DNA of 64,000 bases from an uncultured virus (IMG/VR IMGVR_UViG_3300045996_002278) (IMGVR_UViG_3300045996_002278); one strand, 5' to 3'; positions 1,292 through 64,000 are shown, counted from the stretch's first letter. Notes: generated from the letters alone by a model not told the origin. Program-made: numbers and translations.

Positions 1292-1742
1292 TCCCCGCCG
1301 CTCGCTTGGGCTCCGGAGGCAGGGAGTCCAGGCGGGCGCCTCCCATCATACCGCCCGCCTTCTGCTGGTACTCGAACAGCCGACACCTGGTAAATAGCTC
1401 GATCGGATGCTTCGCGCTGGGAGGACCGGGCGGACCATTCAGGGCGTGGTGCATCAGCTCATGCGCAACCACCCACCCCTCGTTCTCCAAGCCGACGGTG
1501 AGATAGACCGTATCCGGGGCAGCCCACTCTCCCTTCAGCAGCTGGTCCTGAAAGTAGGTGGAGTCCCGGACCAGGAAGACGACCTGCTCCAGGGTCTTCG
1601 TGGTATCCCGCTCCGATCCGGCGCAGGCCACCACGCGGTTCCACAGCTCACGGACAGATTCATCGGGGTAGAGGCGTTCTCGCACCTGGGCTGATGCGAC
1701 CTGAGGCAGGAACAACAGGAGTGCTACAAGAAGGCCGCGCAT
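1221..1742 (-). CDS. secreted HExxH zinc-metallopeptidase-like protein
   Basis: N-terminal signal peptide (MRGLLVALLLFLPQVASA) and VVAHELMHH motif. Confidence 0.65.
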   Translation of the reverse strand: MRGLLVALLLFLPQVASAQVRERLYPDESVRELWNRVVACAGSERDTTKTLEQVVFLVRDSTYFQDQLLKGEWAAPDTVYLTVGLENEGWVVAHELMHHALNGPPGPPSAKHPIELFTRCRLFEYQQKAGGMMGGARLDSLPPEPKRAAGTTLMGQWTERYYVRDPLTVNIYR

Positions 1743-2767: not shown

Positions 2768-3099
2768 TCGCAGATGTCGCCTCGGTGCTGGTACTGAACG
2801 ATCAGGTCAAGAACCTGGGCATAGCCAGCCAGGTCGAGACGGTTGTCGTACTTCGGCTTGTGGGCTTCCCGCTGGATCTTGAGGAGCTGCATGCACTGGA
2901 CCACATCCTCGGGCGTGATCTCTGCATCATCCCGGAGCTTTCCCTTGGCTGCCAGGAGGGTTGTCCAGAAGTCCGCGACCACCGAGAACGCGTAGTAGGG
3001 GTGTCCATAATCCTCCTGCCGACCGGTCCCGTCCTGGCTCGGACCACCCACCAGCATGTCGGCGTGGGCGCAAAGGTTCATACCCTCATGCGTTGCCAC
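2764..3099 (-). CDS. DUF6378-like phage protein
   Basis: RQEDYGHP...F...ADFW...M.LLKI.R......DNRLDLAGYA pattern. Confidence 0.7.
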   Translation of the reverse strand: MATHEGMNLCAHADMLVGGPSQDGTGRQEDYGHPYYAFSVVADFWTTLLAAKGKLRDDAEITPEDVVQCMQLLKIQREAHKPKYDNRLDLAGYAQVLDLIVQYQHRGDICE

Positions 3100-4540: not shown

Positions 4541-5461
4541 TTATCCTGGACCAGGGGGTGTGAGGCTATACGCATTACTCTCTTCCTTCCGGTATCGGCG
4601 CCCCATCCGGCCACGAAGGTTGGTCGGGCGTGACTTGAGGAGCTGGTACTTATGGAACTCGCAGAGTGTGTGTTCAATATCGGCCAGGCTGCAGTGGGGT
4701 TTCTCCTTCCAGGCGACATCGTTCCAGTCCAATCCCTGGTTATTCAGCACCTTGTCTCGGAGCTGCTGCAGGGTCCGAATGTCGGTTCCCATCTGCTCGA
4801 GCATCGAGCCTGACCCTCCCCCGGTGTTTCCTCCCTTCGCCTTGAACTTCCCCCCGTTGTTGTGGGTGTAGACCCACTCGTCGTCGGTCAGGTTCCCGAA
4901 CAGGTACGTCATGTCCAGGGCGACCTGATAGGCGGTGAACTTCCCCATCAGGGGAAAGCGCTGAATCATGATCCACGCCTGCTCGAGCCCCGTGGCACGC
5001 CACAGGTCCTGGGCTAGCAGGTAGGTGGGTGACCACGTGGACACCGCGGCCTCCACCCGCGCGAGGTAGTCCTTCCCCGGGTAGTTGCTCAGGGGTGGTA
5101 CCGTCCAGGCCCGGGTGGCGATCGTGTCGCCTCGCTGCTGCCGTGCCCGCATCTTCTTCATCCCCAGAAGGAACTGGGCGCCCCGGGCGGTTGGGCCGCC
5201 AAACGCCTCCTTCCAGGCGTCCACGTTGTTGAACACTCGGTACAGAAGAACGCTGAAGACGGTGTCCTCCAAGATACTACTCTTACGCATGATGTTCTTG
5301 ATCAGAAACTGCGTCCCTGGATCTAGCTCCCGATGCACGTTCACAAACCAGTAGCTGTGAAGGGTCGGGTCCTTCGTCCAGGGCCGTGGAATCTGAAGCA
5401 CCTCCCTTCGGTGCCAGATCGCTTGTCGTTCGTACGCAAACCGCCAGAACTCCTCGATCAT
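4541..5461 (-). CDS. aGPT-Pplase1 / HMUDK_hel-like DNA base-hypermodification protein (helical, HhH-glycosylase-like)
   Basis: FAYERQAIWHRR...PWTKDPTL..YWFVNVHRELD.GT; LYRVFN; G.FTAYQVALDM; DIEHTLCEFHKY. Confidence 0.8.
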   Translation of the reverse strand: MIEEFWRFAYERQAIWHRREVLQIPRPWTKDPTLHSYWFVNVHRELDPGTQFLIKNIMRKSSILEDTVFSVLLYRVFNNVDAWKEAFGGPTARGAQFLLGMKKMRARQQRGDTIATRAWTVPPLSNYPGKDYLARVEAAVSTWSPTYLLAQDLWRATGLEQAWIMIQRFPLMGKFTAYQVALDMTYLFGNLTDDEWVYTHNNGGKFKAKGGNTGGGSGSMLEQMGTDIRTLQQLRDKVLNNQGLDWNDVAWKEKPHCSLADIEHTLCEFHKYQLLKSRPTNLRGRMGRRYRKEESNAYSLTPPGPG

Positions 5462-5581: not shown

Positions 5582-7432
5582 TTAAGCGGCAGCCGCATAG
5601 TCGATCTCTCCCACGTGTCCCCAGTCTGGTCCCTTCTCGGCCTCGGCGATGATCGGGACCGTGAGCTGGTAGTCCTCCATCATCTCCTTCAGCCGCTTGG
5701 CTTCCCGTACACCATCCGGACCCTTGGGGATGGACAGGTCCAGTTCGTCATGCACGGTCAGGTGGAGCTGGGTGGTCACCCAGTCAATCTCGTTCCCCAC
5801 CCGGACCATCGCCTTCTTGATCAGGTCGGCCGCGGAGCCCTGGAGGAGTCCGTTGAGCGCCTTGTGACCACCGATGTACGCGGACTTATCCCGCTTGAGG
5901 TTCCACCCACGGGCCAGGGCCTCCTCCCGGGGCATGAACCGCCGCTTGCGGCCACCCCAGGTCAGGATGTACCCACGCTTCTTGGCCCGCCGCATGGCCT
6001 TGTCGTACAGGGGTTGAATCTCCGGCAACCGGGTGTGGTACGTCTTCAGCTTCTCCTTGGCCTCCTCCATCGAGCATCCCAGCTGTTCCGCGGTAGCAGC
6101 CACCCCCTGGCCATAGATCACGGCAAAGTTGAAGGTCTTCGCGTCAGGTCTCTGAAGACCCGTAAGCAGCGAGGCCATTCGGTGGAAATCCTGATCAGGG
6201 TTCTCGTTGTAGGCCTTACGTAGAATGCCACCTGCGTAATGCGCCAGGAAGCGATACTCGATTTGGGAGTAGTCAATCTTGAGCCAGTCCTGATTATCCG
6301 GGTCCATTGGTATGAATAGACCACGGATAAGAGGCGCCATTTCCTCGTCTCGCGCCGGGACATTCTGTAGATTGAGACCACCCCCGGAGGAGAAACGACC
6401 CGATACCGTACCATATCGCTCGTTTCGCATCTGATGGAACTCGCCATGGATCACCCCGTCCGGGTCAACGTTCTTCAGGATGTAGTTCTCGAGGAACGTG
6501 CCGGTGTAATGCCCCAGCTTGCGCCGGGCCAGCACGAGCTTCGCTACTGGGTGAGGCAGCCGCTTCAGCCAATCCGCCGGGAAGGAGGGGTTGCCCCCAG
6601 ATTCCTTCCCCTTCTTGTTGATGAAGGTGTCGGTCTTCGGATACGCGATCCCTAGCTTGTCGAACAACGCCGCCATCTGCTTCGGGCTGTCGACGTTCAC
6701 GTCATACCCGATCAGGCTGTACCACTGCTCCATTACCCGTTCTTCTTCCTGCTGAAACCCTTGCTGGGTCTGGTACGTCTTGGCCACGTCCACCCGGACG
6801 CCCAGCAGGTGCATCTTCAACAGGATTGGCAGGAGCTGGGTCTCAACCTGGTAGATGTCGTCCAGCTCCTCAGTGTTGATCTGTGGACGCCGTTTATCGT
6901 AAAAGACCAGGGTGCCCCAGGCGTCATCCGAGGCGTAGGGCGCCACGATGTGTCCCGGCGCCCGGTGGTAGTTCTCGGCCTGCGCATCTCGGGTGGGAGC
7001 GCCACCAAAGTGGAGGGCACAGTACTTGTTCAGCTCCTCATCGTTCTTGCCCATCCCGCAGTACTTCTGGAGCTGGAACTCCAGGGACATGGACTCGTCC
7101 AACTCGTTGAGGAGGGGCGCCAAGATGCTCCCGTCCTCGATGTTGTACCGGACCGGGATGCCCTCGTACGCCATCATCCGCATGTCGAAGGGGCCATTGA
7201 AGAAGATCTTTCTCAGCCCCCGGCGGGTCAGATTATCCTTCGCCCACGCCCGGACCTGCTCAACGGTGCAGTTGTTCCCGGTGGGATGACCCCAGGACAG
7301 GTACTTCTTCGTCCCGTCGGGCAAGGCCCACGACAGCCCCACAGGTCGGTTATGGTAACGGAGACCATTGGTCTCCGTATCCAGGCCTACCCGATCAGCT
7401 AAGAACAGGTTCGGGAACAGATCAGCGGACAT
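5582..7432 (-). CDS. polA: family A DNA polymerase with 3'-5' exonuclease
   Basis: Exo I GLDTET; TVSGRFSS; NLQNVP; motif A DYSQIEYR; motif B AKTFNFAVIYG; motif C VHDEL. Confidence 0.95.
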   Translation of the reverse strand: MSADLFPNLFLADRVGLDTETNGLRYHNRPVGLSWALPDGTKKYLSWGHPTGNNCTVEQVRAWAKDNLTRRGLRKIFFNGPFDMRMMAYEGIPVRYNIEDGSILAPLLNELDESMSLEFQLQKYCGMGKNDEELNKYCALHFGGAPTRDAQAENYHRAPGHIVAPYASDDAWGTLVFYDKRRPQINTEELDDIYQVETQLLPILLKMHLLGVRVDVAKTYQTQQGFQQEEERVMEQWYSLIGYDVNVDSPKQMAALFDKLGIAYPKTDTFINKKGKESGGNPSFPADWLKRLPHPVAKLVLARRKLGHYTGTFLENYILKNVDPDGVIHGEFHQMRNERYGTVSGRFSSGGGLNLQNVPARDEEMAPLIRGLFIPMDPDNQDWLKIDYSQIEYRFLAHYAGGILRKAYNENPDQDFHRMASLLTGLQRPDAKTFNFAVIYGQGVAATAEQLGCSMEEAKEKLKTYHTRLPEIQPLYDKAMRRAKKRGYILTWGGRKRRFMPREEALARGWNLKRDKSAYIGGHKALNGLLQGSAADLIKKAMVRVGNEIDWVTTQLHLTVHDELDLSIPKGPDGVREAKRLKEMMEDYQLTVPIIAEAEKGPDWGHVGEIDYAAAA

Positions 7433-7802: not shown

Positions 7803-8213
7803 TTACTCTTCCTCCTTACGACGGTCCATAAAGGGACCATGCTTCGTATAGATACCCAGATTATGCCGCCGCCGAATCAACTGCTGGCGGAGTTGAATAA
7901 GATCGAATGCGAACCGACTCAGGGTAGCCTCGATCTCCCGGGCCATCTTCACCCCATCCCGGACGAACTGGACCTCCCCGATCCGAACCTTGTACTGGGC
8001 GGTCTTCTTCTCCATCGCCTGCGCGTGCCGTACCCCTTCAATCAGGGTGTCAATCAGATAGTCGTGCACGTCGTGCTCCGGATGGCCAGCCGGTTCCAAC
8101 ACCTGTGGTCCCCATATCTTTACCTGCCGGGCACGATCAGCGTCCCGCCTCTTCTCGTACTCGAGAATGGGCGGGTTCTTCTCTTGAAGCCGGTCCTCCC
8201 TGCGACGGTTCAT
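7803..8213 (-). CDS. hypothetical protein
   Basis: Start re-called at MNRRREDRLQ, ATGA overlap with the TS homolog stop. Confidence 0.6.
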   Translation of the reverse strand: MNRRREDRLQEKNPPILEYEKRRDADRARQVKIWGPQVLEPAGHPEHDVHDYLIDTLIEGVRHAQAMEKKTAQYKVRIGEVQFVRDGVKMAREIEATLSRFAFDLIQLRQQLIRRRHNLGIYTKHGPFMDRRKEEE

Positions 8214-9133
8214 TCGCTCCGCTGGCGTTCGTGATACAGCCCCCGGTACAAGGCGGGCAAGTCCTCCACCCGCTTGTGGAAGCGGAACGCCAGCACCTTC
8301 AGGTAGTCCAACCATACGTTGTAGTCGTGCTCCTTGTCACGTTCCCACGTATAGATAATGTCCTGCATGATTGCGGGGTCCTGGGAGGTGATGCCCAGGA
8401 AGAAGGTCTCCATCCAGGGTGGCATGGATGACAGGGGAGGCGAGGCGAAGCCCTCCGGGATCAGCCAGATGGGGTTGCATAGCTCCGCAACCGCCTGGGC
8501 CTTCTCGTAATGCTCCTCGTACAGGTGAAGGCTACCCACGTTGTGGGTGTAGCTGCCCAGACCCACGGCCAGCATCACCGCAAGGTACCGCTGGATCTGG
8601 GTGAAGGTGAACACGTCGTACGGGAATCCCAGCCACAGGTCGTTAGACCTCATCGTCACGACACAGTGGAGCAGGTCATGACGGATTAAAAACTGCATCG
8701 ACAGGGTACACGGGATGTCCCTGGTGCCCGCCGGTCTCTCCCGCCAGAGGTTGATCACGGCCTGGCGGCTGTCGCGGTCGTTCTGCAAGGTCCGAACCAC
8801 GTACTGGAGCTGCTCGACAACCTTGGGGCCATACGCCCCAAAGAAATGCATCCCATCGTCCGAGAACTGCCTGATGTTGCCATTGTACGGGGCGATGGTA
8901 CGCACGTCGTTCCGGCCGAACATGATCCATAGCCACTCCGCGACCTGGAACTGATAGTTGAGGTTCCGTTCCCGCAGGGTCACCACGTTGTACGCCGGGT
9001 TCTGGAGGACCAGGGTAGACCCGATCGTCTCCACCGTCTTCTTCCCTCGAGGGGAGACCCCGTGGCCCTCCCGGCACAGGCCATAGATCGCCCGACAGTA
9101 CAGGTCGTTAACTGTTGACGCGACGATTCGCAC
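8210..9133 (-). CDS. thymidylate-synthase-family enzyme, Asp-type (dCMP hydroxymethylase/methylase-like)
   Basis: GAYG, DSRQAVI, catalytic DIPC, MRSNDLWLGFPYD, GSLHLY. Asp replaces the dUMP-specifying Asn. Confidence 0.85.
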   Translation of the reverse strand: MRIVASTVNDLYCRAIYGLCREGHGVSPRGKKTVETIGSTLVLQNPAYNVVTLRERNLNYQFQVAEWLWIMFGRNDVRTIAPYNGNIRQFSDDGMHFFGAYGPKVVEQLQYVVRTLQNDRDSRQAVINLWRERPAGTRDIPCTLSMQFLIRHDLLHCVVTMRSNDLWLGFPYDVFTFTQIQRYLAVMLAVGLGSYTHNVGSLHLYEEHYEKAQAVAELCNPIWLIPEGFASPPLSSMPPWMETFFLGITSQDPAIMQDIIYTWERDKEHDYNVWLDYLKVLAFRFHKRVEDLPALYRGLYHERQRSE

Positions 9134-14481: not shown

Positions 14482-14606
14482 GGGCCAGAGCAGGAATCGA
14501 ACCTGCGACCTCCGCCTACTACTCCCGCGATCTTCTCGTCTGCAGCAAGAGCAAGAATGTACCCTGCGGTTTCGGGCGGTGCTCTCCCAGCTGAGCTATC
14601 TGACCC
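14482..14606 (-). tRNA. tRNA-like gene with a 58-nt insertion replacing the anticodon loop
   Basis: Acceptor GGTCAGA/TCTGGCC; D arm TAGCTCAGCTGGGAGAGC; anticodon stem CCGCC/GGCGG; variable AGGTC; T arm GCAGG-TTCGATT-CCTGC. Confidence 0.8.
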
Positions 14607-17551: not shown

Positions 17552-17875
17552 TCACGCCGTAGGCTGAAGTAACTCCCCAGGCGGAGGGTCAGTTTCAATG
17601 GTGGTTCGGGTCGTTGTTCCATCTGGCCGCCTGATTGACATGGTGAATCGTGGATGGATCTGTGCCCAGATACGTACCGAGATCGGCCGCCAGGAATCTT
17701 CTCCCTGCCACGTATGGAACGCGACCGATCCCTCAATCCCAATGTGATGAACCCGCCACTGCTTGATCAGCTTGTTCTCCTCATCCTTGTAGGAGACAAT
17801 GATCGCCGGGTCATCCTTGCAGTTTACCTCATTCCGGTCAAGGATAGACCGGCCAATGCTGACGTAGTACGGCAT
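17552..17875 (-). CDS. hypothetical protein
   Basis: Start re-called at MPYYVSIGR, TGATG coupling to thyX. Confidence 0.55.
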   Translation of the reverse strand: MPYYVSIGRSILDRNEVNCKDDPAIIVSYKDEENKLIKQWRVHHIGIEGSVAFHTWQGEDSWRPISVRIWAQIHPRFTMSIRRPDGTTTRTTIETDPPPGELLQPTA

Positions 17876-18600
17876 CAGAACTCTTCCGGGGGATTCCCCG
17901 TCTGACTCTCTTCCCATGCGGATACCGCGACCGGTACGATGGGGTGGATCAGATCCAGCATGGCAAAGGCGTACTGTTGAATCTCGTACTGGGCGTGGGG
18001 GTCAACCCTAAGCCCCAAGAAATGAAACAGGTTCCGCAGGTTCAGGGTCGTGAACATGTGGGTGTAGGTGTTCACGGGCAGCACCATCCGGGCCAGCTCC
18101 CGGGGCCAACCGGTGCTTAGCAGCTGACGGTACAACCCGAACGCCGCCTCGCAATGGGTATTGATGTACTCCAGTTCCTTAGCCCTTTGCTCGGCCCACT
18201 CCCCCGGACTCTGGGTATTTCTTCCCTGCTTGTTAGTCGCGGACTGCATGCCCACGACCATGGGTGAGGGCAGGTAGAACTCCTCTGACAGGGCACGGTA
18301 GCGACCAGACAGCTCGTTGTACGACTGGGTCCGGTGCCGATGCCACTGGCGCACGACGAAGATCGGTGCCTTCACCTCAAACGTAAAGGTCACCGCCTCG
18401 AACGGGGTAAAGTGCTGGTGCTTGTACAGGTAGTGGATCAGCTTCTCATCCGCGTGCTCGTCCTCCCCTGCCCGCCAGGCCGCGGCGTACGATACCCGCG
18501 CGGCCCGGACGATGCTGAGGTCACTACCCATGTGGTCCACGAGACGGACATACCCATGGTCCAACACGGGCTTAAACGGGTCAGAACTCGGGCTGGTCAT
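17875..18600 (-). CDS. thyX: flavin-dependent thymidylate synthase
   Basis: RAARVSY, HFTPFE, RQWHRHRTQSYNELSGRY, ELARMVLP, HAQYEI. Confidence 0.95.
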   Translation of the reverse strand: MTSPSSDPFKPVLDHGYVRLVDHMGSDLSIVRAARVSYAAAWRAGEDEHADEKLIHYLYKHQHFTPFEAVTFTFEVKAPIFVVRQWHRHRTQSYNELSGRYRALSEEFYLPSPMVVGMQSATNKQGRNTQSPGEWAEQRAKELEYINTHCEAAFGLYRQLLSTGWPRELARMVLPVNTYTHMFTTLNLRNLFHFLGLRVDPHAQYEIQQYAFAMLDLIHPIVPVAVSAWEESQTGNPPEEF

Positions 18601-20176: not shown

Positions 20177-21013
20177 TTAGAACTTCGGCTCGTCGTCCAC
20201 GATCTCGGCGTCCAGAATCTCCTCGGCGTTGCTGTACGACGGGGAGGGTTCCTCTGCCGCCTGGTAATCCAGGGTGACCTTCTGCTCGGAGCAGTCGCCG
20301 TAGAACTTCTTGGCGGCAACGTACACCGACGGATCGTTGATGTAGGTCACGGCTGAGCCATCGGCCGCGGAGAACTTCACGTTGTAGAAGGTGTGCTGAT
20401 CCTTCTTGGCCTCGACCGTGGTCATCTTCCAGATGGTCGCGAACCGTGGCGGGGTGAGGACACCCTTGCCATCAGGGGAGGGAACCCGGAGCTCGGACAG
20501 CTTGGTGTTGAACTCACGGGAGACCTTGAGCTTGGTGCTGGTGCAGCTGATCACGGCACCGGACCAGGACTTCTTGGTGGGACTGAAGAAGATCACGTAG
20601 TGGTTCTGGGTATCCACGACCTGCCAGGTCGGGTCCTCGGCGGCACGGGCATCGGCTTCCTGCCGAGTCTTGAACGTACCCTTGAATCCCTGGCCCTTCT
20701 TCCGATCCACCCAGACGTTGTACACCATCTCGTAGTAAACCGGGATGAAGAGGACGCCATCCTTACCCTCGAACAGCTCCTGGGTGACCGAGTTGAAGAT
20801 CATGCCTTCCTCGGCACCCGTGATGTACTTGTCGCTGCTCTTGATTCGCTGCGGCGACAGCGACTGCACCACGTTCAGGAACGGCGTGGCCATGTCCTGC
20901 TTGCTCAAATTCTCGAGCCCGAGATTGGCATCCTGAGCAAACATGGAGGCCAGCTCCGTGCCCGCCGGAAGGGTATTGCCCTTCTCGGTCGTCTGGAGTT
21001 GATTCTTTGCCAT
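20177..21013 (-). CDS. putative single-stranded DNA-binding protein
   Basis: GLENL...DMATPFL.VVQ.LSPQ pattern common in phage replication modules; acidic tail ending in Phe. Confidence 0.6.
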   Translation of the reverse strand: MAKNQLQTTEKGNTLPAGTELASMFAQDANLGLENLSKQDMATPFLNVVQSLSPQRIKSSDKYITGAEEGMIFNSVTQELFEGKDGVLFIPVYYEMVYNVWVDRKKGQGFKGTFKTRQEADARAAEDPTWQVVDTQNHYVIFFSPTKKSWSGAVISCTSTKLKVSREFNTKLSELRVPSPDGKGVLTPPRFATIWKMTTVEAKKDQHTFYNVKFSAADGSAVTYINDPSVYVAAKKFYGDCSEQKVTLDYQAAEEPSPSYSNAEEILDAEIVDDEPKF

Positions 21014-21018
21014 CTGCT

Positions 21019-21519
21019 TTACCGCTCCTTCTTGGGTGAAAGAATAACTGCCGCCGACTCGGTGTACTTCGTCACGTAGGGTGGGACGTCGGCTGCCCGC
21101 CCTTCGTCAATGCACTCGTTCACCCAGCCCCGCAGGGTCTGGAAATGAACGTCTTCCTTGACCATGGCCGACATGCCATGGGACTTCAGGAACTCGATCA
21201 GCCGCGGCTTATCCTCAGCCTTGCAGCTGGCGTAGGTCTCATTCTTCAGGTAGATCTTGGTGCCATCGGCCAGGGTGAAGGACCCCTTGCCATCGGCGGA
21301 GACCATATTGGCATCCCGCATCAGCGCCGGGACGGTCTCTTTCCGGAGCTTGTCATACTCGGCCTGCGCTGCCTTCAGCTCTTCCTTGAGCCGATCCACC
21401 ATCGTACGGGCAGTGATCAGGGTCATCCCGTACTGGGATAAGGTCTTCTTTTCCTGGGGTGTCGGTTCACGGACCATCGCGGCGGCATCAGCCGCCAGCA
21501 TCGCTGGGTCGAGCATCAC
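21019..21519 (-). CDS. conserved phage replication-module protein
   Basis: Coiled N-terminus; VKEDVHFQTLRGWV motif; adjacent to the SSB-like gene. Confidence 0.6.
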   Translation of the reverse strand: MMLDPAMLAADAAAMVREPTPQEKKTLSQYGMTLITARTMVDRLKEELKAAQAEYDKLRKETVPALMRDANMVSADGKGSFTLADGTKIYLKNETYASCKAEDKPRLIEFLKSHGMSAMVKEDVHFQTLRGWVNECIDEGRAADVPPYVTKYTESAAVILSPKKER

Positions 21520-31600: not shown

Positions 31601-32748
31601 GCAGCCTCCAGATTACCGAAGAGATCCCACTCGTTCGTTCCCACCTTCTTGGCGGTAAAGGCGGCGAAAGCGCCGGACGTGAGCAAGGTCTCAGGCGTGT
31701 TGATGGTCACCCCGGTATCGGCCACGAGGGTCACCTGGCCCTGGGTGCCGATCCCGTGAATCTCCGTCCCAACCGGATAGGCCACCGAGCCGTTGGCCGG
31801 GATGGTAAAGGCGCAGCCGGCCGCGTTGGTGAACCGGATGTAGGTATTCGCGTCCCCCAGGACCCCGGTGTAGGTTGCCCCCGACTGGGTGGCCACTGGG
31901 GCAGGTACCGGATTCGCCTCCAGGGCGTCAATTCTGGTGTCAAGGTTCTGACCTTCCAGGGTATCGAGCCGACCATCCAGCAGACCCAGCTCGGTGGCGA
32001 TCTCGGCCAGGGTATCGAAGGCCGCAGCCACGCCGTTCTTGAGAGCATCAATGGCCGCGGTCACGAAGGTCTGGGTCGCGATCAATGCACCCTCGACCGT
32101 GGGCGCACCCTGGAGGTCCACATCCTCCTTGATCGTGGGGTTGGGGTACGCTCCCTCGAGGTCACCACCCGCATCTCCCTCCGGTTCCGAGCCAGAACCC
32201 GGCCGAGCGAGAATCAGCCAGCGGTCATTGTCGCCGTCCGCCACGAAGATGGTTCCTTCGAACTCGGAGTCAAGGATGCGGCTCGCGGCACCACCAATTT
32301 CTTCAACACCATCCGGTTGAACGGTAACGGTATTCGCTGAACCATCCACCTTGAAGACGGCAAAGTGGACCCCATCTACATCTGCAGCCGGAGGCAGGGT
32401 GACGACTACCGGACCAGCCGTGGCGTCGACGGTGATGACCTCATCCCCCTCCACGATCGTGTAGTCCGTAGTCTTATCCTCGACCGGGGCGTGCTTGAGG
32501 CGGAAGGTACCTTCACCACCTTCGCCACCCTCACCGATCGCAGCCTGAACCCAGGCGTCATTGGCCTCGTTGCGCACGAAGATACCCAAGATCTCCGTCC
32601 AGCCAGTATCGGCGTCGGTCTTTATCCAGGGCATTCCGGCCACCACGATGGTCGGCCAGGTGGTGAACGGGTCGGTGTTCCGGATGAATGCGAAGCCTGG
32701 GAACACGTTGAACGGCTGATTCATTACCGCTTGGTAAAGGCCAGGCAT
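31597..32748 (-). CDS. tail fiber-like protein
   Basis: KTTDYT...VDATAG.V.VTLP, AGGDLEGAYPNP, AFDTLAEIA, and C-terminal KVGTNEWDLFGNL. Confidence 0.7.
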   Translation of the reverse strand: MPGLYQAVMNQPFNVFPGFAFIRNTDPFTTWPTIVVAGMPWIKTDADTGWTEILGIFVRNEANDAWVQAAIGEGGEGGEGTFRLKHAPVEDKTTDYTIVEGDEVITVDATAGPVVVTLPPAADVDGVHFAVFKVDGSANTVTVQPDGVEEIGGAASRILDSEFEGTIFVADGDNDRWLILARPGSGSEPEGDAGGDLEGAYPNPTIKEDVDLQGAPTVEGALIATQTFVTAAIDALKNGVAAAFDTLAEIATELGLLDGRLDTLEGQNLDTRIDALEANPVPAPVATQSGATYTGVLGDANTYIRFTNAAGCAFTIPANGSVAYPVGTEIHGIGTQGQVTLVADTGVTINTPETLLTSGAFAAFTAKKVGTNEWDLFGNLEAA

Positions 32749-57269: not shown

Positions 57270-58056
57270 CTTCGCCTCCCTCGTTAAGAATGATTTCGTC
57301 CAGCTGCCCGGTCAGTTGCTCCTGCGTCCGGCTGGGCAGCTCGGGCCGGTTGGCCAGGTGCCGGATGCGACGGGTTAGGGCCGACAGGATGTGGGGGTCG
57401 TGAACCTCCTCCACGATCGCCTGTTGGATCAGCCCCATGAAGGTGATCATCTGCTTGCTGTTGATGTACGTCTGGAGGGCTTCCTCGCGCCGGCGCTCCG
57501 TGTCCGCCAGTTTGCGGCGCAGCTCGATCCATTCCTGGATCTCGGCCCAGTGCTGGTGGTCGGTCTTCTTCAGCTCTAGGGCAGATTCGAGCAGGGCAGT
57601 GCTGAGAAGAATATCCCCTAGCTTATTATCATCTACCGCTTTTCTGAGCTTGCGGATACCGTCAACGATCAGCTGCCAGGCGTGGGGAATCTCACCCGAC
57701 TCCAGTCGCTCAAGGAGTTCACCCACCCGGGCGTCGGTGAGCCGCATCTCGGCGTTAAGGGAGAGGAGGTCGTGATCTCCCGCGAAAGTGTCCAGCATCT
57801 CCACCAGGCGGGCTGGTATCTTCCGAGCGTAGCCGCGGCCGTAGAAGTGCTCGGGGCCAAAGTCGAACCTCCGGTCTACTGGTGTGGCGCCCCCGTGATG
57901 CTTGCAACGATCCCGGCCGGTGACCGGGTAGTTGTGGCAATAAAGATCTTCTCCGGTAGTACCACGCCCCTGAAGAACGGCGTTGCACCTGCCCGCGGCA
58001 GGCTTACGCTTGTCCATCCGGTTCTCGTGGTTGGGAGCTGGGACGTTGGTCGGCAT
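57091..58056 (-). CDS. putative terminase small subunit (HGGx-type Zn/DNA-binding N-terminus)
   Basis: C...C......RCKHHGGATP followed by a helical domain; first gene of the late operon. Confidence 0.65.
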   Translation of the reverse strand: MPTNVPAPNHENRMDKRKPAAGRCNAVLQGRGTTGEDLYCHNYPVTGRDRCKHHGGATPVDRRFDFGPEHFYGRGYARKIPARLVEMLDTFAGDHDLLSLNAEMRLTDARVGELLERLESGEIPHAWQLIVDGIRKLRKAVDDNKLGDILLSTALLESALELKKTDHQHWAEIQEWIELRRKLADTERRREEALQTYINSKQMITFMGLIQQAIVEEVHDPHILSALTRRIRHLANRPELPSRTQEQLTGQLDEIILNEGGEDGGEGSGLDQSGPGEPDAADAGGPPEPGGDGFLYPEPGPAGQVGGGSDQAEVPGERGAD

Positions 58057-58201
58057 GGGTAAGACTCTATGAACTGGTGGAGCTCGGATGACACCCCCTA
58101 GTTCAGGGTTTAGAGATCTTACTACACACTAGAGGAGGAAAGCTACAGAAATTTCTAGAAAAATTTTGGAGGGTGCCCCCTGGACCTGGGGCTGTATCCC
58201 G

Positions 58202-58366
58202 TTATACGAGAACGCAATGCCTATTTGAGAAGCTTCCCCTACCAGGGTTTCGAAGGCAATCCCGAAGGGTATAGGTACGTCAGTGCACCTGCCTCCTAAT
58301 ATCCGTACCCTGGATATGAATGTTCTAAGTACAAAGCTTTTTCTAAAACTTTAGTTTCCCGTATAG
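58202..58366. repeat. cis element, copy 2
   Basis: TTATACGAGAA, CAATCCCGAAGGGTA, AATATCCGTACCCTGGATAT and TTTCCCGTATAG in the same order as at 24987-25136. Confidence 0.65.
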
Positions 58367-58399
58367 GATACGCGTGCCGATACAGTGGGGCGTCAACGT

Positions 58400-58800
58400 T
58401 TCATTATGAAAAATACCCCTCCCATACCTTATAAATATTCATCCATAATGTATAATTATAAATTGAAATGTATAAATGAACCTAAGTCCTTTAAAATCAA
58501 TAAGTTATAAATGATCCTGGAATGGCATTATGCATAATGTGAATAAAAAGTAAACGAAATGTATATTTATGAATAGGATTAATGGGTTATGAAAACAGCC
58601 TATCTTAATACAAAAAAGTTACTGGCATATACATATTGAATTTCTTATATTCATTTCAAGTTAAATGATTAATAAAAATTAGTTAGTCAATAGTAATTAA
58701 AATTGTTACAAAACAAAGTATTGACAAAAAGATAATAAACGATTAAATTATTCCTAAGTTAAATGAAAGGAAAATACAAATAAGAATAAAAAGTTTGAGA
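58400..58800. other. very AT-rich non-coding island with an IHF consensus site
   Basis: Abrupt composition shift; AATCAATAAGTTA at 58495-58507 fits WATCAANNNNTTR. Confidence 0.7.
58703..58749 (+). promoter_or_regulatory. strong early sigma70-like promoter
   Basis: TTGACA-17 nt-TAAATT, AT-rich upstream region, TTGTTACAA palindrome. Confidence 0.75.
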
Positions 58801-58867
58801 AATACCGGCCGGGCGGCTCCCGGATCAACCTGGGCACCTGGTGTGCCCCCAGAACGGAGAATGACAT

Positions 58868-59119
58868 ATGGCGAAGCGTGGATACCAGTTCATGGTCGAC
58901 AGCGCCGACCTGCAGGCGGGCGTGCGCAAGGTCCCCCTGGACTACAAGCCGGAGCAGACCCAACAGCTGTACGCAACGTACTCGGTCGCGCGCCTTAACC
59001 TGTTCGCGGAGCACCGCAAGGTTATCGTGGCCCACCAGCAGATGATCCAGGATTGGGTGACGATCAAGCTGGAGGACGTGCCGACCCTCGAGCTGGCCGA
59101 GGAGCAGGAGACCGCGTAA
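58868..59119 (+). CDS. early hypothetical protein
   Basis: 83 aa; AGAACGGAGAA RBS. Confidence 0.7.
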   Translation: MAKRGYQFMVDSADLQAGVRKVPLDYKPEQTQQLYATYSVARLNLFAEHRKVIVAHQQMIQDWVTIKLEDVPTLELAEEQETA

Positions 59120-59248
59120 GCGGGGCGGGGGACCGGGCAACCGGTCCCCCAGCTTTCCTCCGCGCTGTAGGGCGCGTACGGCCCGGTGCAACTCCGGGGC
59201 GGAGGGCTGGTAGTGCAGCATGGGTTCCATCCCCAACTGGAGGTCCAG

Positions 59249-59404
59249 ATGTACCAGGTTTTCTACGGCCAGCACTGGCTCCGCTCCCGGAGCAAGACGT
59301 TCCCCACGAAGGCACTGGCCCTCAAGTTCGCCCGCCAGCGCAAGACCCCGTACGTCCGCGTGATCCGAATCCAGCGCGACGTCGTGTGGTCCCGGGGGAG
59401 CTGA
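59249..59404 (+). CDS. early basic microprotein
   Basis: GGAGGT RBS; MYQVFYGQHW..., 51 aa. Confidence 0.65.
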   Translation: MYQVFYGQHWLRSRSKTFPTKALALKFARQRKTPYVRVIRIQRDVVWSRGS

Positions 59405-59507
59405 CCCCCCAGCAGAATCCCCTGGTTCCCGGCGCACTGGAGGTTCGATTCCTCCGCCAGGGCTGCAGGCCCCGCAGTAGAACGGAGAACTTTAACTGGA
59501 GGTACAG

Positions 59508-59654
59508 ATGAGACCCCTGCTTGCCGCGGTATGCGTGCTCGTGATGGTGGGTGCAGCGATGGCCCAGATCACGAAGGCGCTGCCCCTCGAGTTCGCCGCC
59601 GTGCTCTCGGTGACGGCGTTCCTGGTGCTGATTACCAAGTGCGGGGAGGCGTAA
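59508..59654 (+). CDS. early two-TM membrane microprotein
   Basis: GGAGGT RBS; MRPLLAAVCVLVMVGAAMA...FAAVLSVTAFLVLI, 48 aa. Confidence 0.6.
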   Translation: MRPLLAAVCVLVMVGAAMAQITKALPLEFAAVLSVTAFLVLITKCGEA

Positions 59655-59795
59655 TCCCCCATGCTCAGCCCTGAGCGGTACCAGCTGCTCCTCCACCTGC
59701 TTGGAAAGGCGTGGGAGCTGAAGTCCCAGCACCTGCACAACATGACGCTAGCGATGGCGCAGGTTCACCAGCAGTAGCAAGGGAGGCTACACCAG

Positions 59796-59978
59796 ATGTT
59801 CCACACGCTTGTGGAGGCGCACCACGCCCTGAACGCGTGGCTCAGCGCCCCGAACCGCGGGGGATGCTGCGGGTGGACCTTCGGCGTCCCCAGCACCAAG
59901 GGCAGCATGGTGTACAGCTACACGATCATCTCCGGGGTCGACAAGACCATGCACGCCCCGATCCCCTGGATGCAGTGA
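59796..59978 (+). CDS. early microprotein
   Basis: GGAGG RBS, 60 aa. Confidence 0.55.
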   Translation: MFHTLVEAHHALNAWLSAPNRGGCCGWTFGVPSTKGSMVYSYTIISGVDKTMHAPIPWMQ

Positions 59979-60057
59979 ACCTGGCCCAGGTGCAGCTGGG
60001 GGTTCGACTCCCCCACCAGGTTTGGCAGGTGCAGTTCCACTCCAACAGGAGGTCCAG

Positions 60058-60183
60058 ATGAACCGCGAGTATCTCGACAAGCTGTTTTCCTGGTTTACGG
60101 GCGCGCCCCAGCTGCCGACCCTGTTCATGCTTCGGCAGCGGCGCCAGGAGTACTACCGCTCGTTCGGGCTGCGCCGGAGGTAG
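60058..60183 (+). CDS. early basic microprotein
   Basis: AGGAGGT RBS; MNREYLDKLF..., 41 aa. Confidence 0.6.
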   Translation: MNREYLDKLFSWFTGAPQLPTLFMLRQRRQEYYRSFGLRRR

Positions 60184-60222
60184 CAGCAGCTGAGGTTCCA
60201 ATCCTCGTAGGAGGTACAGCAG

Positions 60223-60420
60223 ATGACGGAGCGTGAACAACTGCTCGCCCGCGTGGCTGCGAAAAAGTTCGCCAGCCGTCTAAAGACGGAGCGCTGGGCC
60301 GAGCCGATCCCCATGGAGTGGGAGAAGCTGTCCGACGAGCAGGTACGCTATGCGATCGAGGTGCTGCCACAGTTCGGCGTGCACCGACGCCCCGACCTGA
60401 AGTGGGAGGCATCCTGGTAG
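60223..60420 (+). CDS. early microprotein
   Basis: AGGAGGT RBS, 65 aa. Confidence 0.65.
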   Translation: MTEREQLLARVAAKKFASRLKTERWAEPIPMEWEKLSDEQVRYAIEVLPQFGVHRRPDLKWEASW

Positions 60421-60522
60421 CAGCATAACCGGCCGGCCACGGGCGCACTGGAGGTTCGACTCCTCCGCCGGCCCATGCAGGTACAGCAGCACGGGTTCCA
60501 CTCCCAACTGAAGGAGCAGCGC

Positions 60523-60765
60523 ATGGCCACGCAAGTCCGCACGTTCCGGCTCTCGATTCTGCTCGAGGCCCCACTGAAGCACCTCCGCGGGTACAAGTTC
60601 GAGGCCCGACTGGTCCGCGTGATCACGACCGCGCTGAACCCCGACAAAGTGAAGGACACGTTTTTCCAGCAGACGATCGAGCAGCTCAAGATCCCGCACG
60701 AATACATATCGGGCTACGAGTGGAGGGAGATGAAGCCCGGTGAACTGGTCCCTATGAGCAGCTAA
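60523..60765 (+). CDS. early hypothetical protein
   Basis: AAGGAG RBS; MATQVRTF..., 80 aa. Confidence 0.65.
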   Translation: MATQVRTFRLSILLEAPLKHLRGYKFEARLVRVITTALNPDKVKDTFFQQTIEQLKIPHEYISGYEWREMKPGELVPMSS

Positions 60766-60905
60766 CGACAGGAGGATCTATGCGTAGGGCCGCGTAAAAA
60801 GCCGCGGCAGCTGGGAGGACGACAGGCGTCCGTGCTGGTTCGAGTCCAGCCCCCAGTGTGCAGGACAAGCAGCATGGGTTCCAACCCCAACAGGAGGTAC
60901 AGCTT

Positions 60906-61034
60906 ATGCAGGTGCCCGACCAGCTTCTCGTGCGCTGTCCCGATTGCGGCCAGCTGCACCGTCCCCTGTACATCGGTAAGCTCGTGGATCAGCTGTTCAT
61001 CCAGTGGCTCGCCGACAACAGTTCGACCAACTGA
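60906..61034 (+). CDS. early CxxC microprotein
   Basis: AGGAGGT RBS; MQVPDQLLVRCPDCGQLH, 42 aa. Confidence 0.55.
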   Translation: MQVPDQLLVRCPDCGQLHRPLYIGKLVDQLFIQWLADNSSTN

Positions 61035-61045
61035 AGGAGCAGCAC

Positions 61046-61225
61046 ATGCAAGCGTACCACTGGAAGCTCCGGCTCCAGGTGCAGGGCCGGCTGGTCGAGG
61101 AGCTGGAGATCAAGCTCGTGGCGCACAGCGAGCAGGACTCCAAGCACCTGATCGAGATGTACCTGGCACCCCAGTTCCCCATCATGAAGTGGACCCTGCT
61201 CAACATCGAACCGGAGGATAAGTAA
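61046..61225 (+). CDS. early microprotein
   Basis: AAGGAG RBS, 59 aa. Confidence 0.6.
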   Translation: MQAYHWKLRLQVQGRLVEELEIKLVAHSEQDSKHLIEMYLAPQFPIMKWTLLNIEPEDK

Positions 61226-61399
61226 ATGCGCGTACAAATCGAGGGCCGCCAGCTGATCCTCACGATTGATCTGGACAACGTGGCGGGCCACACGTCGAAC
61301 GGGAACATCTCAATCGCCAGCACCCACGGCTGGCTGAAGATCGAGGAGGGCGTCAGCTTGTCCCTCAACTTGGTCAAGAAAGTGAAGGCCAACTCATGA
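61226..61399 (+). CDS. early beta-rich microprotein
   Basis: MRVQIEGRQLILTIDL...SNGNISIASTHG...LSLN; GGAGG RBS. Confidence 0.65.
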   Translation: MRVQIEGRQLILTIDLDNVAGHTSNGNISIASTHGWLKIEEGVSLSLNLVKKVKANS

Positions 61400-61626
61400 A
61401 ATGGCAGGAGCTGAACGACGAGCTGATCGGCTGGCACGTGGACGAGGTGATCGAGTGCCTGGACGTCAAGCCGACCACCGAGCGCGCCCTGATGCTTGCT
61501 GCTCCGACAGCATATATGGACGACCAGGTTGAGCTGGAGACCGTGTGGGAGCAGCTGGAATCGGAGGTCCAGCAGGACATCATCCTCGCGCAGCGGAAGC
61601 AGATCGCGGATCTGATGGGTAAGTAG
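61396..61626 (+). CDS. early acidic protein
   Basis: ATGA overlap, 76 aa. Confidence 0.6.
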   Translation: MKWQELNDELIGWHVDEVIECLDVKPTTERALMLAAPTAYMDDQVELETVWEQLESEVQQDIILAQRKQIADLMGK

Positions 61627-62026
61627 CAGGATGGTCTGTTAAATGCGGCACAGGTTGGCCGGCCGTTCCTGGGGCACGGGGTTCGACTCCCCACCGGCCA
61701 CTCCCCACAACTGGGTGGGGAGCACAACGGAGAACCTCAGCATCAGAGGTGTGCCATGCAATACTACGAGCATGAAGGCTTGCCGGCCGCTCCATCGGTG
61801 GAAGCGTCCATTACCCAGGCCCTGCTGATCATCCAGCGCAGGATCGTGGGCAGCAGGAGGACCACGTGATCCGTCGACAGAAGGGCAAGAAGCGGCGCAT
61901 GCACGGCCTGGGACTCCGCGAAGAGGTCGAGCGCGTGATGCGCTACCAGCAATTCCTGGACCGCACCGCCAAGGAGCGCGTCGGCCAGATGGTCCGCCTC
62001 AGCGTCCCCACCAGCAAGGAGGACAG

Positions 62027-62281
62027 GTGAAGGTCGAGGTGATGTGGCACTGGCAGGTCTGTCCGGCCTCCGATGACATCTGCCACCTGCTCTACGAGCA
62101 GGAAGTGGCCGGCAAGAAGTTCGGTCTGATGATCAACCACTCGCAGAACGACCAGCTCGTAGTATTCCTGGACGGTGACTTCGGTCTCCTGCTCATTGAC
62201 GGAGAGATTGTCCAGAACCCCAGCCAGGTATTCCAACTGGCCGGCCCCGCGCTGGACGCGGTACGTGGAAGGGACGACTGA
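62027..62281 (+). CDS. early hypothetical protein
   Basis: AAGGAGG RBS, 84 aa. Confidence 0.6.
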   Translation: MKVEVMWHWQVCPASDDICHLLYEQEVAGKKFGLMINHSQNDQLVVFLDGDFGLLLIDGEIVQNPSQVFQLAGPALDAVRGRDD

Positions 62282-62386
62282 TGCCCCATCCCATAAAGGC
62301 GCTGGTATTCGCTCTTCTATACCAGCCCAAATACGAGTGGTCCGCAGCGCTGGATCACTATCTGGCCATCGTGAAGGAGCGGTAGC

Positions 62387-62638
62387 ATGTATCCCAGGTT
62401 CACGCACGAGGACATGCACCTGTTCGAGTCAGACCAGGCGCGCATCGACTACGTGGTCGCCGAGGCGGAGGCCCAGTACAAGCAGTTGACGGCCGACGCC
62501 GGACCACACGAGATCGTGATCCCCGAGGAAGATTTCCTGGAGAACCTCTGGGAGCAGACGTTCACATGGACACAGACGCTCACGCTCCGGGGTGAGCGCA
62601 TCACCGTCTACTGCCTGGCCTGGATTCGGGAGGACTGA
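62387..62638 (+). CDS. early acidic protein
   Basis: AAGGAG RBS, 83 aa. Confidence 0.65.
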   Translation: MYPRFTHEDMHLFESDQARIDYVVAEAEAQYKQLTADAGPHEIVIPEEDFLENLWEQTFTWTQTLTLRGERITVYCLAWIRED

Positions 62639-62859
62639 TGAAGGAGCGCAAGTTCCTGCTCCGCCTGGTGGTGCTCGATGAGGAGATCAAGGAGCACCCC
62701 CGCACGGAGGAGCACATGTTCAACCTCAAGGGGCCGTCCGTGTGGGCGGCCCTGGAGGCCGTTCGCCAGGCCTGGGTGCGCAACCGGGATTACTATGGGA
62801 TACGCGCCCATGAGGTACTCGAGATGCACGTGGAGGAACAGTACGATGGCACTAACTGA
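62638..62859 (+). CDS. early hypothetical protein
   Basis: TGATG coupling, 73 aa. Confidence 0.6.
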   Translation: MKERKFLLRLVVLDEEIKEHPRTEEHMFNLKGPSVWAALEAVRQAWVRNRDYYGIRAHEVLEMHVEEQYDGTN

Positions 62860-63187
62860 CGCGCAGATCAAAAAGCACATCGACTGGCATAAGTACGTCA
62901 CCACGATGGGGCCACACATCGTCGACGCGCTGCGCAGGATAGACCCCAGTCTGAGGTGCTGGTGGGAGGAGTTTCAGAACAACATCGTGGTGCAAGTGGC
63001 CATCGACAGGGACGCCTGGTTCGGGATCGACAGCGACGAGGGCAAGTGGTACGCCAGCGTCCTGGACCACAGGGAGGGCGGCTACACGGGCGGCATCGAG
63101 ACCGAGGTGCTGGCCTCCGCGCTCGACCCGTGGCTGATCGCCCAGGGCATCCACCAGGCGGCGAAGAAGCTGCAGGGGAGGGTCTGA
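62846..63187 (+). CDS. early hypothetical protein
   Basis: Start re-called at MALTDAQIKKH after GGAGG. Confidence 0.6.
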   Translation: MALTDAQIKKHIDWHKYVTTMGPHIVDALRRIDPSLRCWWEEFQNNIVVQVAIDRDAWFGIDSDEGKWYASVLDHREGGYTGGIETEVLASALDPWLIAQGIHQAAKKLQGRV

Positions 63188-63381
63188 TGGACCAGCAGGA
63201 CGACAAGCCAATCACCCTCCAGGAGCTGGCCGAAGACATCCTGGACGAGGTTAAGCACCTGGAACAGATGAACCGACCGGAGTTCAAGCTGAACACCATC
63301 GGACGCATCTACCTGTTCTGGAGCATGATGGATCGCCGGCTTAAGGAGATGGATAGACAGATCAGGCAGGAGAACTTCTGA
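63187..63381 (+). CDS. early microprotein
   Basis: TGATG coupling; MDQQDDKP. Confidence 0.6.
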   Translation: MDQQDDKPITLQELAEDILDEVKHLEQMNRPEFKLNTIGRIYLFWSMMDRRLKEMDRQIRQENF

Positions 63382-63548
63382 TGCCGATCTTCCACAAGCC
63401 GGCCCGCGTGGTGATCGAAACGGTGAGCTCCCACCAGGCTGACCGACGCCTCGCGAAGTTCTACGAGGAGCTGCTCCAGCTGTGCATTGACCGGTTTCCC
63501 GACGTGCATTTCGAGTACACCGACGACCTGAAGAAAGGAGAACAGTAG
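63381..63548 (+). CDS. early microprotein
   Basis: TGATG coupling; MPIFHKPARVV, 55 aa. Confidence 0.55.
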   Translation: MPIFHKPARVVIETVSSHQADRRLAKFYEELLQLCIDRFPDVHFEYTDDLKKGEQ

Positions 63549-63551
63549 CCT

Positions 63552-63752
63552 ATGAACCCGAAATTCCCGGAGGTCGAGGTCCAGCTCACGGGCCAGGATG
63601 GCAACGCGTTCAACATCATCGGCCGGGTATCGCGCGCCCTCAAGCAGGCCGGCATGCCGGCCGAGGCGACGGAGTTCACGAACCGAGCGTTCTCCGCGGG
63701 GAGCTACGATGAGTTGCTTCAGCTGGCCATGGAGACCGTAACGGTCCACTAG
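63552..63752 (+). CDS. conserved small phage/plasmid protein
   Basis: VQLTGQDGNAFNIIGRV..AL..AG...SYDELL pattern. Confidence 0.75.
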   Translation: MNPKFPEVEVQLTGQDGNAFNIIGRVSRALKQAGMPAEATEFTNRAFSAGSYDELLQLAMETVTVH

Positions 63753-63805
63753 CAGAAGCAGGGACCGGGACCGGCCGGCATGCAGCCTCGAGAGCTGCCC
63801 CTGCT

Positions 63806-63846
63806 TTGTAACAAGTGTTGGACTTCTGGCCAGCAGATGGTATATT
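63806..63846 (+). promoter_or_regulatory. sigma70-like promoter with TTGTAACAA palindrome
   Basis: TGGACT-16 nt-TATATT with extended -10 TG; followed by a hairpin and AGAACGGAGA. Confidence 0.6.
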
Positions 63847-63889
63847 TATACATGGGGAAAGAGACCCCATAAGAACGGAGAGCTGAACT

Positions 63890-64000
63890 ATGAGCGAGAT
63901 CCCCAGCAGCCGACTCCATGCCTATGTGCAGGAGTTCGAGCGCCTGTGGCGGTCCCGCACGCCCTCCACCAGTATCTACGACGCCCTTCCTGGAACCCGC
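63890..64000 (+). CDS. hypothetical protein, truncated by the window end
   Basis: ATG after GGAG RBS, open to the end. Confidence 0.5.
   Translation, partial: MSEIPSSRLHAYVQEFERLWRSRTPSTSIYDALPGTR

Follow-up and report, generated by a model that had tools for sequence, protein, structure and literature searches.

The 64,000-nucleotide (nt) stretch of DNA from the uncultured virus IMGVR_UViG_3300045996_002278, referred to here at its full length as the window, carries six short elements (E1-E6) that resemble transfer RNAs reduced to an acceptor stem and a T arm. All six are on the + strand, spanning positions 59157-61700, each in a spacer between small genes. Covariation, together with a canonical T arm in a geometry of 7 + 5 base pairs (bp), supports the conclusion that they are selected, tRNA-derived RNA structures. 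Their function can be approached by analogy, and the leading reading, which we regard as an evenly balanced proposition, is that they are tRNA-like processing signals for the RNase P and RNase Z of the host, that is, a phage counterpart of the t-elements of plant mitochondria.

Six minihelices and their counterparts in other contigs

In each element an acceptor-like stem of 7 bp stacks straight onto a T stem of 5 bp, which is capped by a 7-nt loop, and a linker of 12-18 nt takes the place of the D and anticodon arms. E1 (59157-59205, + strand, as for all six) joins the acceptor strands CCTCCGC/GCGGAGG to the T arm CCCGG-TGCAACT-CCGGG, and its 18-nt linker holds a D-like hairpin. E2 (59420-59462) has the acceptor CCCTGGT/GCCAGGG, a 12-nt linker and the T arm GGAGG-TTCGATT-CCTCC, while E3 (59979-60021) has the acceptor ACCTGGC/ACCAGGT, a linker of the same length and the T arm GGGGG-TTCGACT-CCCCC; its first base is also the final base of the stop codon of the small gene o5. 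A 12-nt linker is found again in E4 (60431-60473; acceptor GGCCGGC/GCCGGCC, T arm GGAGG-TTCGACT-CCTCC). E5 (60810-60857) combines the acceptor GCTGGGA/CCCCAGT with a 17-nt linker containing the hairpin GGACG-ACAGG-CGTCC and with the T arm GCTGG-TTCGAGT-CCAGC, and E6 (61656-61700) has the acceptor TGGCCGG/CCGGCCA, a 14-nt linker and the T arm CGGGG-TTCGACT-CCCCA. The seventh, innermost acceptor position reads C-G, U.G, C.A, C-G, A.C and G-C from E1 to E6, so that 7, 7, 6, 7, 6 and 7 of the seven acceptor pairs are formed. The T loop is of the canonical UUCRANY type in five of the six, the G53-C61 pair is present in all, and the acceptor stems are followed by GCTGG, CTGCA, TTGGC, CATGC, GTGCA and CTCCC, with no CCA after any copy.

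The original prediction, drawn from the sequence without database searches, had described six such elements, and all were found at its positions, on the + strand. What it took for one unpaired base beside the T arm is the seventh acceptor position, which gives the tRNA geometry of 7 + 5 bp, and its linker range of 13-18 nt is corrected to 12-18 nt. The D-like hairpins that it reported in two copies are present in minimum free energy (MFE) folds of E1 and E5. It had also noted that anticodon arm and CCA are missing, in agreement with the trailer sequences above and with searches by ARAGORN and with the Rfam tRNA model, which called nothing in 59149-61700. A canonical tRNA gene is excluded by the lack of a tRNA call and by the mere 12-18 nt that separate the acceptor 5' strand from the T stem. 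Nor does any described Rfam family, the finding that would have removed the novelty of the elements, claim them. Two candidates from a search at permissive thresholds were rejected: the mascRNA-menRNA family (RF01684) aligned with E6 at 17.8 bits (E 7.3) against a gathering score of 42.5, the other elements not being reported, and tRNA-Sec aligned weakly with E5 at 18.8 bits against 47.

The motif GGTTCGANTCC occurs seven times in the window, compared with a mean of 0.29 in 100 shuffles, none of which reached seven; five copies lie in the elements, all on the + strand, and two in tRNA genes. With a strict descriptor of the minihelix, the two strands of the 64 kb gave four matches in total, each of them in the element region; E6 and E1 come up once the descriptor tolerates a single T-stem mismatch or a less strict loop, together with many false matches. 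By a hand calculation any T arm finds an acceptor partner with at least 6/7 pairs at some linker length about once in 3, and one with 7/7 pairs about once in 40, which leaves only 7/7 matches or arrays of matches as informative; four 7/7 and two 6/7 stems among six elements are therefore far beyond chance on this calculation. Covariation points the same way. In a hand-set register (a MAFFT alignment of the six elements misplaced the 5' strands), 69 of the 72 stem cells form standard pairs, a number reached in none of 5000 partner shuffles (mean 45.1), and in 9 of the 12 pairs both sides change in a compensatory manner, which bears out the earlier claim that the stems vary between copies and still pair. 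Over 49 nt, flanks included, E2 and E4 share 80% identity, yet they differ at four acceptor positions by compensatory changes. The strand is given by the T loop, which reads correctly on the + (coding) strand alone; G.U pairs and mismatches do not tell the strands apart.

Diverged strains of the phage are present in two soil runs, on a 267-nt contig with 10 differences and a 537-nt contig with 38. Among the differences listed, E3 in the shorter contig has three in its linker and none in its stems or loop, and E6 in the longer contig has three in its linker, one in its outermost pair and none in its T arm. The linkers themselves had been given a role in the original prediction, in which their GG would pair with the T loop and mimic the tRNA elbow. 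GG is found in all six linkers, and in both strain variants as well, but its presence in all six has a chance P of ~0.11; the elbow mimic is thus unproven and that part of the prediction is not supported. The broader idea of tRNA-like punctuation stands in so far as the elements are selected tRNA-derived structures, intercistronic and of a known RNase P substrate type, and falls short with respect to the elbow GG.

Similar minihelices were sought in other contigs. A covariance model built on three sequences (R1) depended too closely on sequence and did not recover E1 or E5, while the model R2 scored E5 at 21 bits (E 0.13) and still missed E1. A scan restricted to one acceptor type (GGCCGG, 14-24 nt, GGTTCGANTCC, 3-5 nt, CCGGCC), the spacing of which excludes real tRNAs, returned 16 loci with 12 distinct sequences from viral contigs, nine of the 12 having a perfect 5-bp T stem. 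For this one acceptor type, the full 7 + 5 geometry was present in 7 of the 12 distinct viral matches versus 3 of 56 distinct matches from 596 Gb of cellular genomes (Fisher P ~8e-5), and the extra pairs that complete the geometry in the viral matches lay outside the specified pattern. ARAGORN called none of the 16 loci a tRNA at the match, and one just reaches the Rfam tRNA threshold (29.5 bits). Viral minihelices of 7 + 5 bp with linkers of 11-17 nt are located in L185 (3001-3043, -), L178 (3000-3045, -), L180 (3000-3047, +), L189 (3001-3043, +), L181, L183, L188 and L191 (3001-3046), L176, L186 and L187 (3000-3043), L190 (3001-3042) and L177 (3001-3043 and 5225-5268, -). In L185, L178 and L180 the minihelix stands between a stop codon and a Shine-Dalgarno (SD) sequence with its ATG, as in the window, and members of the L181 family differ in the linker and not in the T arm. 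In the five contigs searched over their whole records (those of L178, L185, L177, L190 and L189), the capsid protein of the window has no relative and R2 detects one element per contig; six minihelices in one operon are unusual among the contigs examined. When four window sequences and 11 from other contigs were aligned, 96.1% of cells were paired versus 75.7% after shuffling, with none of 500 shuffles reaching the observed value in an alignment that was fitted to the model and has part of its stems fixed by the scan pattern. These sequence comparisons hint at a phage-associated class of RNA that is missed by tRNA finders and by Rfam.

Other structured RNAs were noticed as well. A type-P5 twister ribozyme (43.2 bits) is found at 5904-5962 (+) of L138, 2.9 kb from a candidate minihelix on the same viral contig, and L119 and L165 (matches at 3001-3028 and 301-328, -) hold three tandem units of ~40 nt with GGAGGTTCGAGTCCCGGAGTC, a T-loop-like motif. 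Full minihelices of the GGCCGG type were also seen in haloarchaeal contigs, at 1501-1544 (+) of L214 and 1501-1546 (+) of L202; these are reminiscent of the tRNA-like element located upstream of haloarchaeal 5S rRNA.

A possible processing role and its alternatives

As processing signals, the minihelices would be transcribed within one polycistronic mRNA of this soil siphophage, each keeping only the part of a tRNA that is read by the end-processing enzymes, namely the coaxial acceptor/T helix and the T loop. Host RNase P would cut where the acceptor stem begins on its 5' side, and a 3' endonuclease, RNase Z for CCA-less substrates, would cut after the discriminator base; the two cuts would split the operon transcript into shorter mRNAs and free a stub of ~45 nt. 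Recognition of the elements by RNase P and RNase Z, as well as any effect on expression, we infer from this analogy. RNase Z acts on CCA-less precursors. The tRNA genes of the phage, like the elements, have no encoded CCA, which fits a host in which CCA-less 3' ends are trimmed by endonucleolytic cleavage. No tRNA-processing enzyme family was found among the 76 window proteins scanned against Pfam; any processing of the elements would therefore use host enzymes. The features of the elements can be set against those of three types of substrate: they have the T arm and stacked 7-bp acceptor of a tRNA; they have the GGTTCRANYCC T arm and acceptor-like stem at a cistron boundary that define a t-element, within a predicted mRNA; and they have the ~12-bp coaxial acceptor/T helix and 7-nt T loop of an RNase P minihelix, without the 3' RCCA through which such a substrate pairs with the P15 loop in the RNA of bacterial RNase P.

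Just downstream of E2-E5, a conserved (T/G)GCAGG starts 1-2 nt beyond the 3' strand of the acceptor stem (59463-59470, 60022-60029, 60474-60481 and 60858-60865, +), at the position where, by the same analogy, an RNase Z cut would make a new 5' end. A scan of viral contigs for the T loop followed by a TGCAGG trailer gave 91 loci, with 21 matches in tRNAs called by ARAGORN and 70 outside them. At least 6/7 acceptor pairs were found in 13 of 28 distinct non-tRNA matches with a perfect T stem versus 7 of 28 in the reversed-strand control, which is not convincing; no wider family is claimed on this trailer, and on sequence comparison it is still confined to E2-E5 as a local feature.

Should RNase P and RNase Z indeed cut at the elements, these would represent a bacterial-virus version of mitochondrial "tRNA punctuation", achieved with the smallest possible tRNA mimic. 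To shape its early gene expression, the phage would then have borrowed a host pathway that is essential and cannot be switched off by the host. As compact (43-49 nt) and sequence-flexible cut sites, the elements would also serve as natural operon insulators in synthetic biology.

A number of observations weigh against this role. The 3' RCCA that helps bacterial RNase P is not encoded at any element, G is found at +1 in only two of the six, the inner acceptor pair is mismatched in three of the six, and the E1 loop, TGCAACT, is non-canonical. Folding energies are not distinctive in this GC-rich sequence (z of -0.12 to -1.15 relative to shuffles), and in MFE folds of longer context the full minihelix is kept for E1 and E5 and the T arm only for E3 and E4. 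E2, E3 and E4, identical in 83% of alignment columns, are paralogues of recent origin, and their similarity is due in part to duplication rather than selection. The strain comparison covers 8 of the 10 differences in the 267-nt contig (X3) and 30 of the 38 in the 537-nt contig (X4), and the rest may fall anywhere in the contigs. Among relatives, 80 loci collected by a TerL-profile scan (1.07 Mb) contained no such elements outside true tRNAs, to which the descriptor matches there belong, and R2 gave only four weak matches, which on reading were tRNA or tRNA-like genes; the array is therefore not an old, conserved trait of the lineage.

The same features could belong to modules that are never cut. 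Uncleaved, the elements might insulate the cistrons in cis, blocking Rho loading or exonucleases, setting the stability of mRNA segments, or binding a factor that recognizes tRNA (TruB, TrmA, EF-Tu or the ribosome, for example) and thereby adjusting translation of the gene that follows, a reading that we consider unlikely. It would suit their position 35-65 nt upstream of an SD sequence, in GC-rich, untranslated spacers of 100-140 nt, as well as the second type of hairpin (class B, described below) and conserved leader that follow E1, E4 and E5. The lack of an encoded CCA and the scarcity of G at +1 are also in its favor, as are the strong hairpins that flank E1 and E6, among them a 10-bp GC hairpin with a GCAA loop (59125-59148, +) that lies between the o1 stop codon and E1 and is present in the MFE fold of 59120-59254. 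A generic roadblock, however, needs neither a canonical T loop nor an exact 7 + 5 geometry, both of which are kept in five to six of the six elements, and their fold stability is no better than that of shuffled sequence.

Processing could also be a means rather than an end, with the released stubs of ~45 nt, once CCA-tailed, acting as decoys that soak up effectors attacking or reading the acceptor end of tRNA and so spare host tRNAs early in infection. Elements that retain exactly the acceptor stem and T arm would be apt for this purpose, given that Cas12a3 engages the acceptor stem, the T arm and the CCA of tRNA (PMC12851939). Six copies with differing acceptor sequences in a likely early operon, and the greater frequency of the geometry in viral (7/12) than in cellular (3/56) matches, are consistent with decoys as well. 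Against this, no CCA is encoded, so two processing steps and CCA addition would be needed first; anticodon nucleases, the best-known tRNA-targeting defenses, could not be decoyed; and the copy number obtained from one operon would be low relative to cellular tRNA. We hold decoys to be improbable, and grant no better prospects to a combined scheme in which widespread, uncatalogued minimal tRNA mimics of phages (acceptor stem, short bulge and T arm) would use host maturation twice, for segmentation of the early operon transcript by RNase P and RNase Z and then, as CCA-tailed decoys, against immune effectors that recognize the acceptor stem, T arm and CCA end, such as Cas12a3-type nucleases and toxins that modify the acceptor end.

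The similarity among copies raises the question of whether these are tRNA genes in decay, or passengers carried along passively, with an ancestral truncated tRNA copied along with gene starts and having no function of its own. The identity of E2 with E4 and of E2-E4 by column, the 73% identity of the o8 and o10 leaders, the tRNA genes elsewhere in the phage and the absence of homologous arrays in relatives all agree with such an origin. Neutral decay, however, would break pairs, while the changes from copy to copy cluster in the stems and compensate one another. In addition, the strain variants, for the differences listed, alter linkers and not T arms, all six copies share one internal deletion architecture, and similar elements recur in unrelated viral contigs; a passenger origin is a rather slim prospect. 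Slimmest of all is the chance that these are DNA-level sites at which small gene cassettes are shuffled, whether as att-like 3' fragments of tRNAs, as recombination hot spots or as cruciforms. Integration often targets the 3' end of a tRNA, and the short orphan genes bordered by the elements have a shuffled or duplicated look. However, an att site needs the 3' half only, yet the 5' acceptor strand is present and covarying, every copy has its T loop in the RNA sense on the coding strand, and no integrase family was found in the Pfam scan of the 76 proteins.

The phage and its small-gene operon

The window covers most of a siphophage-like genome. The terminase, portal protein, P22-type capsid protein and tape measure protein are all encoded on the - strand within 1-58056, as are a family A DNA polymerase, a primase and helicases. 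The same terminase sequence is also known from a 74,527-bp contig, and DNA of this phage is contained in soil metagenome runs. Its nearest named relatives are Nanhaivirus phages, with ~42% capsid identity, and the closest terminases among 5.8 billion proteins are ~54% identical; on these values the phage has no close sequenced relative. A blastn search of 58800-62000 against 50,697 phage records gave no match, and Nanhaivirus R5C and Pan1 contain no GGTTCRANTCC motif. Scans with the TerL protein alone gave one weak locus in viral contigs and none in metagenome contigs, and a scan with a 321-aa neighbor protein likewise gave one weak locus.

Among the tRNA calls outside the element region, the Rfam tRNA match at 14482-14605 (-) is 124 nt long and scores 49.2 bits, and is not called by ARAGORN; it has normal acceptor, D and T arms and an insertion of ~50 nt in the region of the anticodon loop, and may be intron-bearing or disabled. 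A "tRNA-Glu" called by ARAGORN at 32171-32250 (-) falls within an open reading frame (ORF) of 383 aa, is not found by Rfam and is probably a false positive. Genes at 4541-5461, 8210-9133, 17875-18600 and 20177-21519 (-) encode a 5-hmdU DNA kinase helical domain, a thymidylate-synthase-like protein, ThyX and Pam3 gp34/gp33-like proteins, which together suggest hypermodified thymidine in the phage DNA.

An AT-rich island at 58300-58800, with a GC content of 0.265 in a genome of 60% GC, divides the - strand genes from a run of small + strand genes. TATAAT-like repeats recur several times in this island, each strand of which also has promoter-like sites, and it is likely a regulatory or origin region. 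A sigma-70-like promoter at 58721-58749 (+; TTGACA-17 nt-TAAATT, 10/12 consensus matches), inside a stretch of 26.5% GC, is judged from its sequence to be the likely start of the small-gene transcript. The next promoter-like site on this strand is only at 63819, and no terminator-like site was found on the + strand of 57900-64000; the elements have no U tracts and so do not resemble intrinsic terminators. Transcription of the small genes and elements as one RNA we infer from this arrangement.

The genes o1-o12 (58868-61626, +) encode proteins of 38-83 aa, with a GC content at third codon positions (GC3) of 0.81-0.95. They are located at 58868-59119 (o1), 59249-59404 (o2), 59508-59654 (o3), 59661-59777 (o4), 59796-59978 (o5), 60058-60183 (o6), 60223-60420 (o7), 60523-60765 (o8), 60906-61034 (o9), 61046-61225 (o10), 61226-61399 (o11) and 61396-61626 (o12). 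For o1-o17 (37-84 aa), GC3 is 0.79-0.95 compared with 0.79-0.87 in structural genes, with the same codon-position pattern of GC, which is missing from overlapping alternative ORFs. An SD-like purine-rich stretch precedes most starts, as a clear GGAGG or AGGAG in most cases and weakly before o12. With both the GC3 pattern and the SD-like stretches in place, the elements are truly intercistronic. None of o1-o12 matches Pfam, and o1-o20 gave zero tblastn matches across all the loci fetched. The leaders and first codons of o8 and o10 (60504-60552 and 61027-61075, +) are 73% identical, the o10 leader being situated within the 3' end of o9, and this sequence identity indicates that gene starts were duplicated together with their leaders. 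A five-codon mini-ORF (60780-60797, +; ATG CGT AGG GCC GCG TAA) is located between o8 and E5 and has an SD of its own; it shares sequence with the 5' arm of a 6-bp hairpin immediately next to E5.

The class B hairpin has a stem of 3-5 bp and the T-loop-like loop TTCCANY, and is placed 3-4 nt upstream of the SD of o2, o6, o7, o8 and o9. Its motif, GTTCCANYCC, occurs nine times in the window compared with 1.5 expected, five of the copies being in this region. Just before the SD of o2 is B1 (59221-59235, +), TGGG-TTCCATC-CCCA. B2 (60034-60043, +), before that of o6, is a degenerate motif, GTTCCACTCC, without a stem, in which a strain variant has T>G at 60035. B3 (60191-60207, +), TGAGG-TTCCAAT-CCTCG, precedes the SD of o7 with no minihelix (class A element) alongside, and B4 (60493-60505, +), GGG-TTCCACT-CCC, and B5 (60875-60889, +), TGGG-TTCCAAC-CCCA, precede those of o8 and o9. 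Class B hairpins thus follow E1, E4 and E5 with the conserved leader, E3 is followed only by the stemless copy, and E2 and E6 by none. The B3 stem covaries with the other copies (GAGG/CCTC versus GGG/CCC), and in MFE folds the C-rich 3' strand of class B can instead pair with the GGAGG of the SD; on this folding model the hairpin may be a translational switch. A search of viral contigs for the class B and SD pattern gave 0 matches.

Comparison with known systems

No account of arrays of tRNA-like minihelices between phage genes was found in Rfam or in a full-text literature search, the coverage of which excludes subscription journals, and tRNA-like processing modules as such are already known from organelles, vertebrate long non-coding RNAs and model substrates. 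In phage T7, early genes are separated by RNase III sites, at which a host endonuclease cuts the polycistronic transcript made by the host polymerase. These sites are likewise structured RNAs between cistrons of a phage transcript, but are imperfect double-stranded hairpins with no tRNA features. In Cluster K mycobacteriophages, the SAS/ESAS motif is conserved and repeated just upstream of many translation starts, and resembles the class B hairpin with its SD leader in this respect, although its sequence differs and it has no T-loop-like hairpin. The mascRNA and MEN-beta modules of MALAT1 and NEAT1 are excised by RNase P and RNase Z. Like the phage elements they are tRNA-like modules in a long transcript, and theirs is the Rfam family with which E6 aligns most nearly (RF01684), but they belong to vertebrate nuclear RNAs and have a cloverleaf, and E6 remains below the gathering score.

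Closer in structure are the substrates of AT-1 type (McClain, Guerrier-Takada and Altman 1987, as summarized in PMC11143913), which have one coaxial acceptor/T helix and are cleaved by RNase P at the canonical site. According to the same article, model hairpins of an acceptor stem and T stem-loop are cut correctly, and the natural non-tRNA substrates of the enzyme include operon mRNAs as well as the M3 and C4 RNAs of phages (PMC11143913). AT-1 substrates are, however, synthetic and carry a 3' CCA, while the phage elements have no CCA and have a bulge of 12-18 nt between the 5' strands. The nearest natural parallel is with the t-elements of plant mitochondria (Forner et al. 2007, PMC1920247), described as being located inside mRNAs at boundaries, with a GGTTCRANYCC T arm and an acceptor-like stem. 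They were found with this motif, their mapped ends fit cuts by RNase P and RNase Z, and excised stubs gain non-encoded C and A (PMC1920247). The t-elements are organellar, usually non-canonical cloverleaves of ~74 nt, and single, in contrast to the six elements of 43-49 nt within 2.5 kb described here, and the cleavage that has been mapped for t-elements (PMC1920247) is a prediction for the phage elements.

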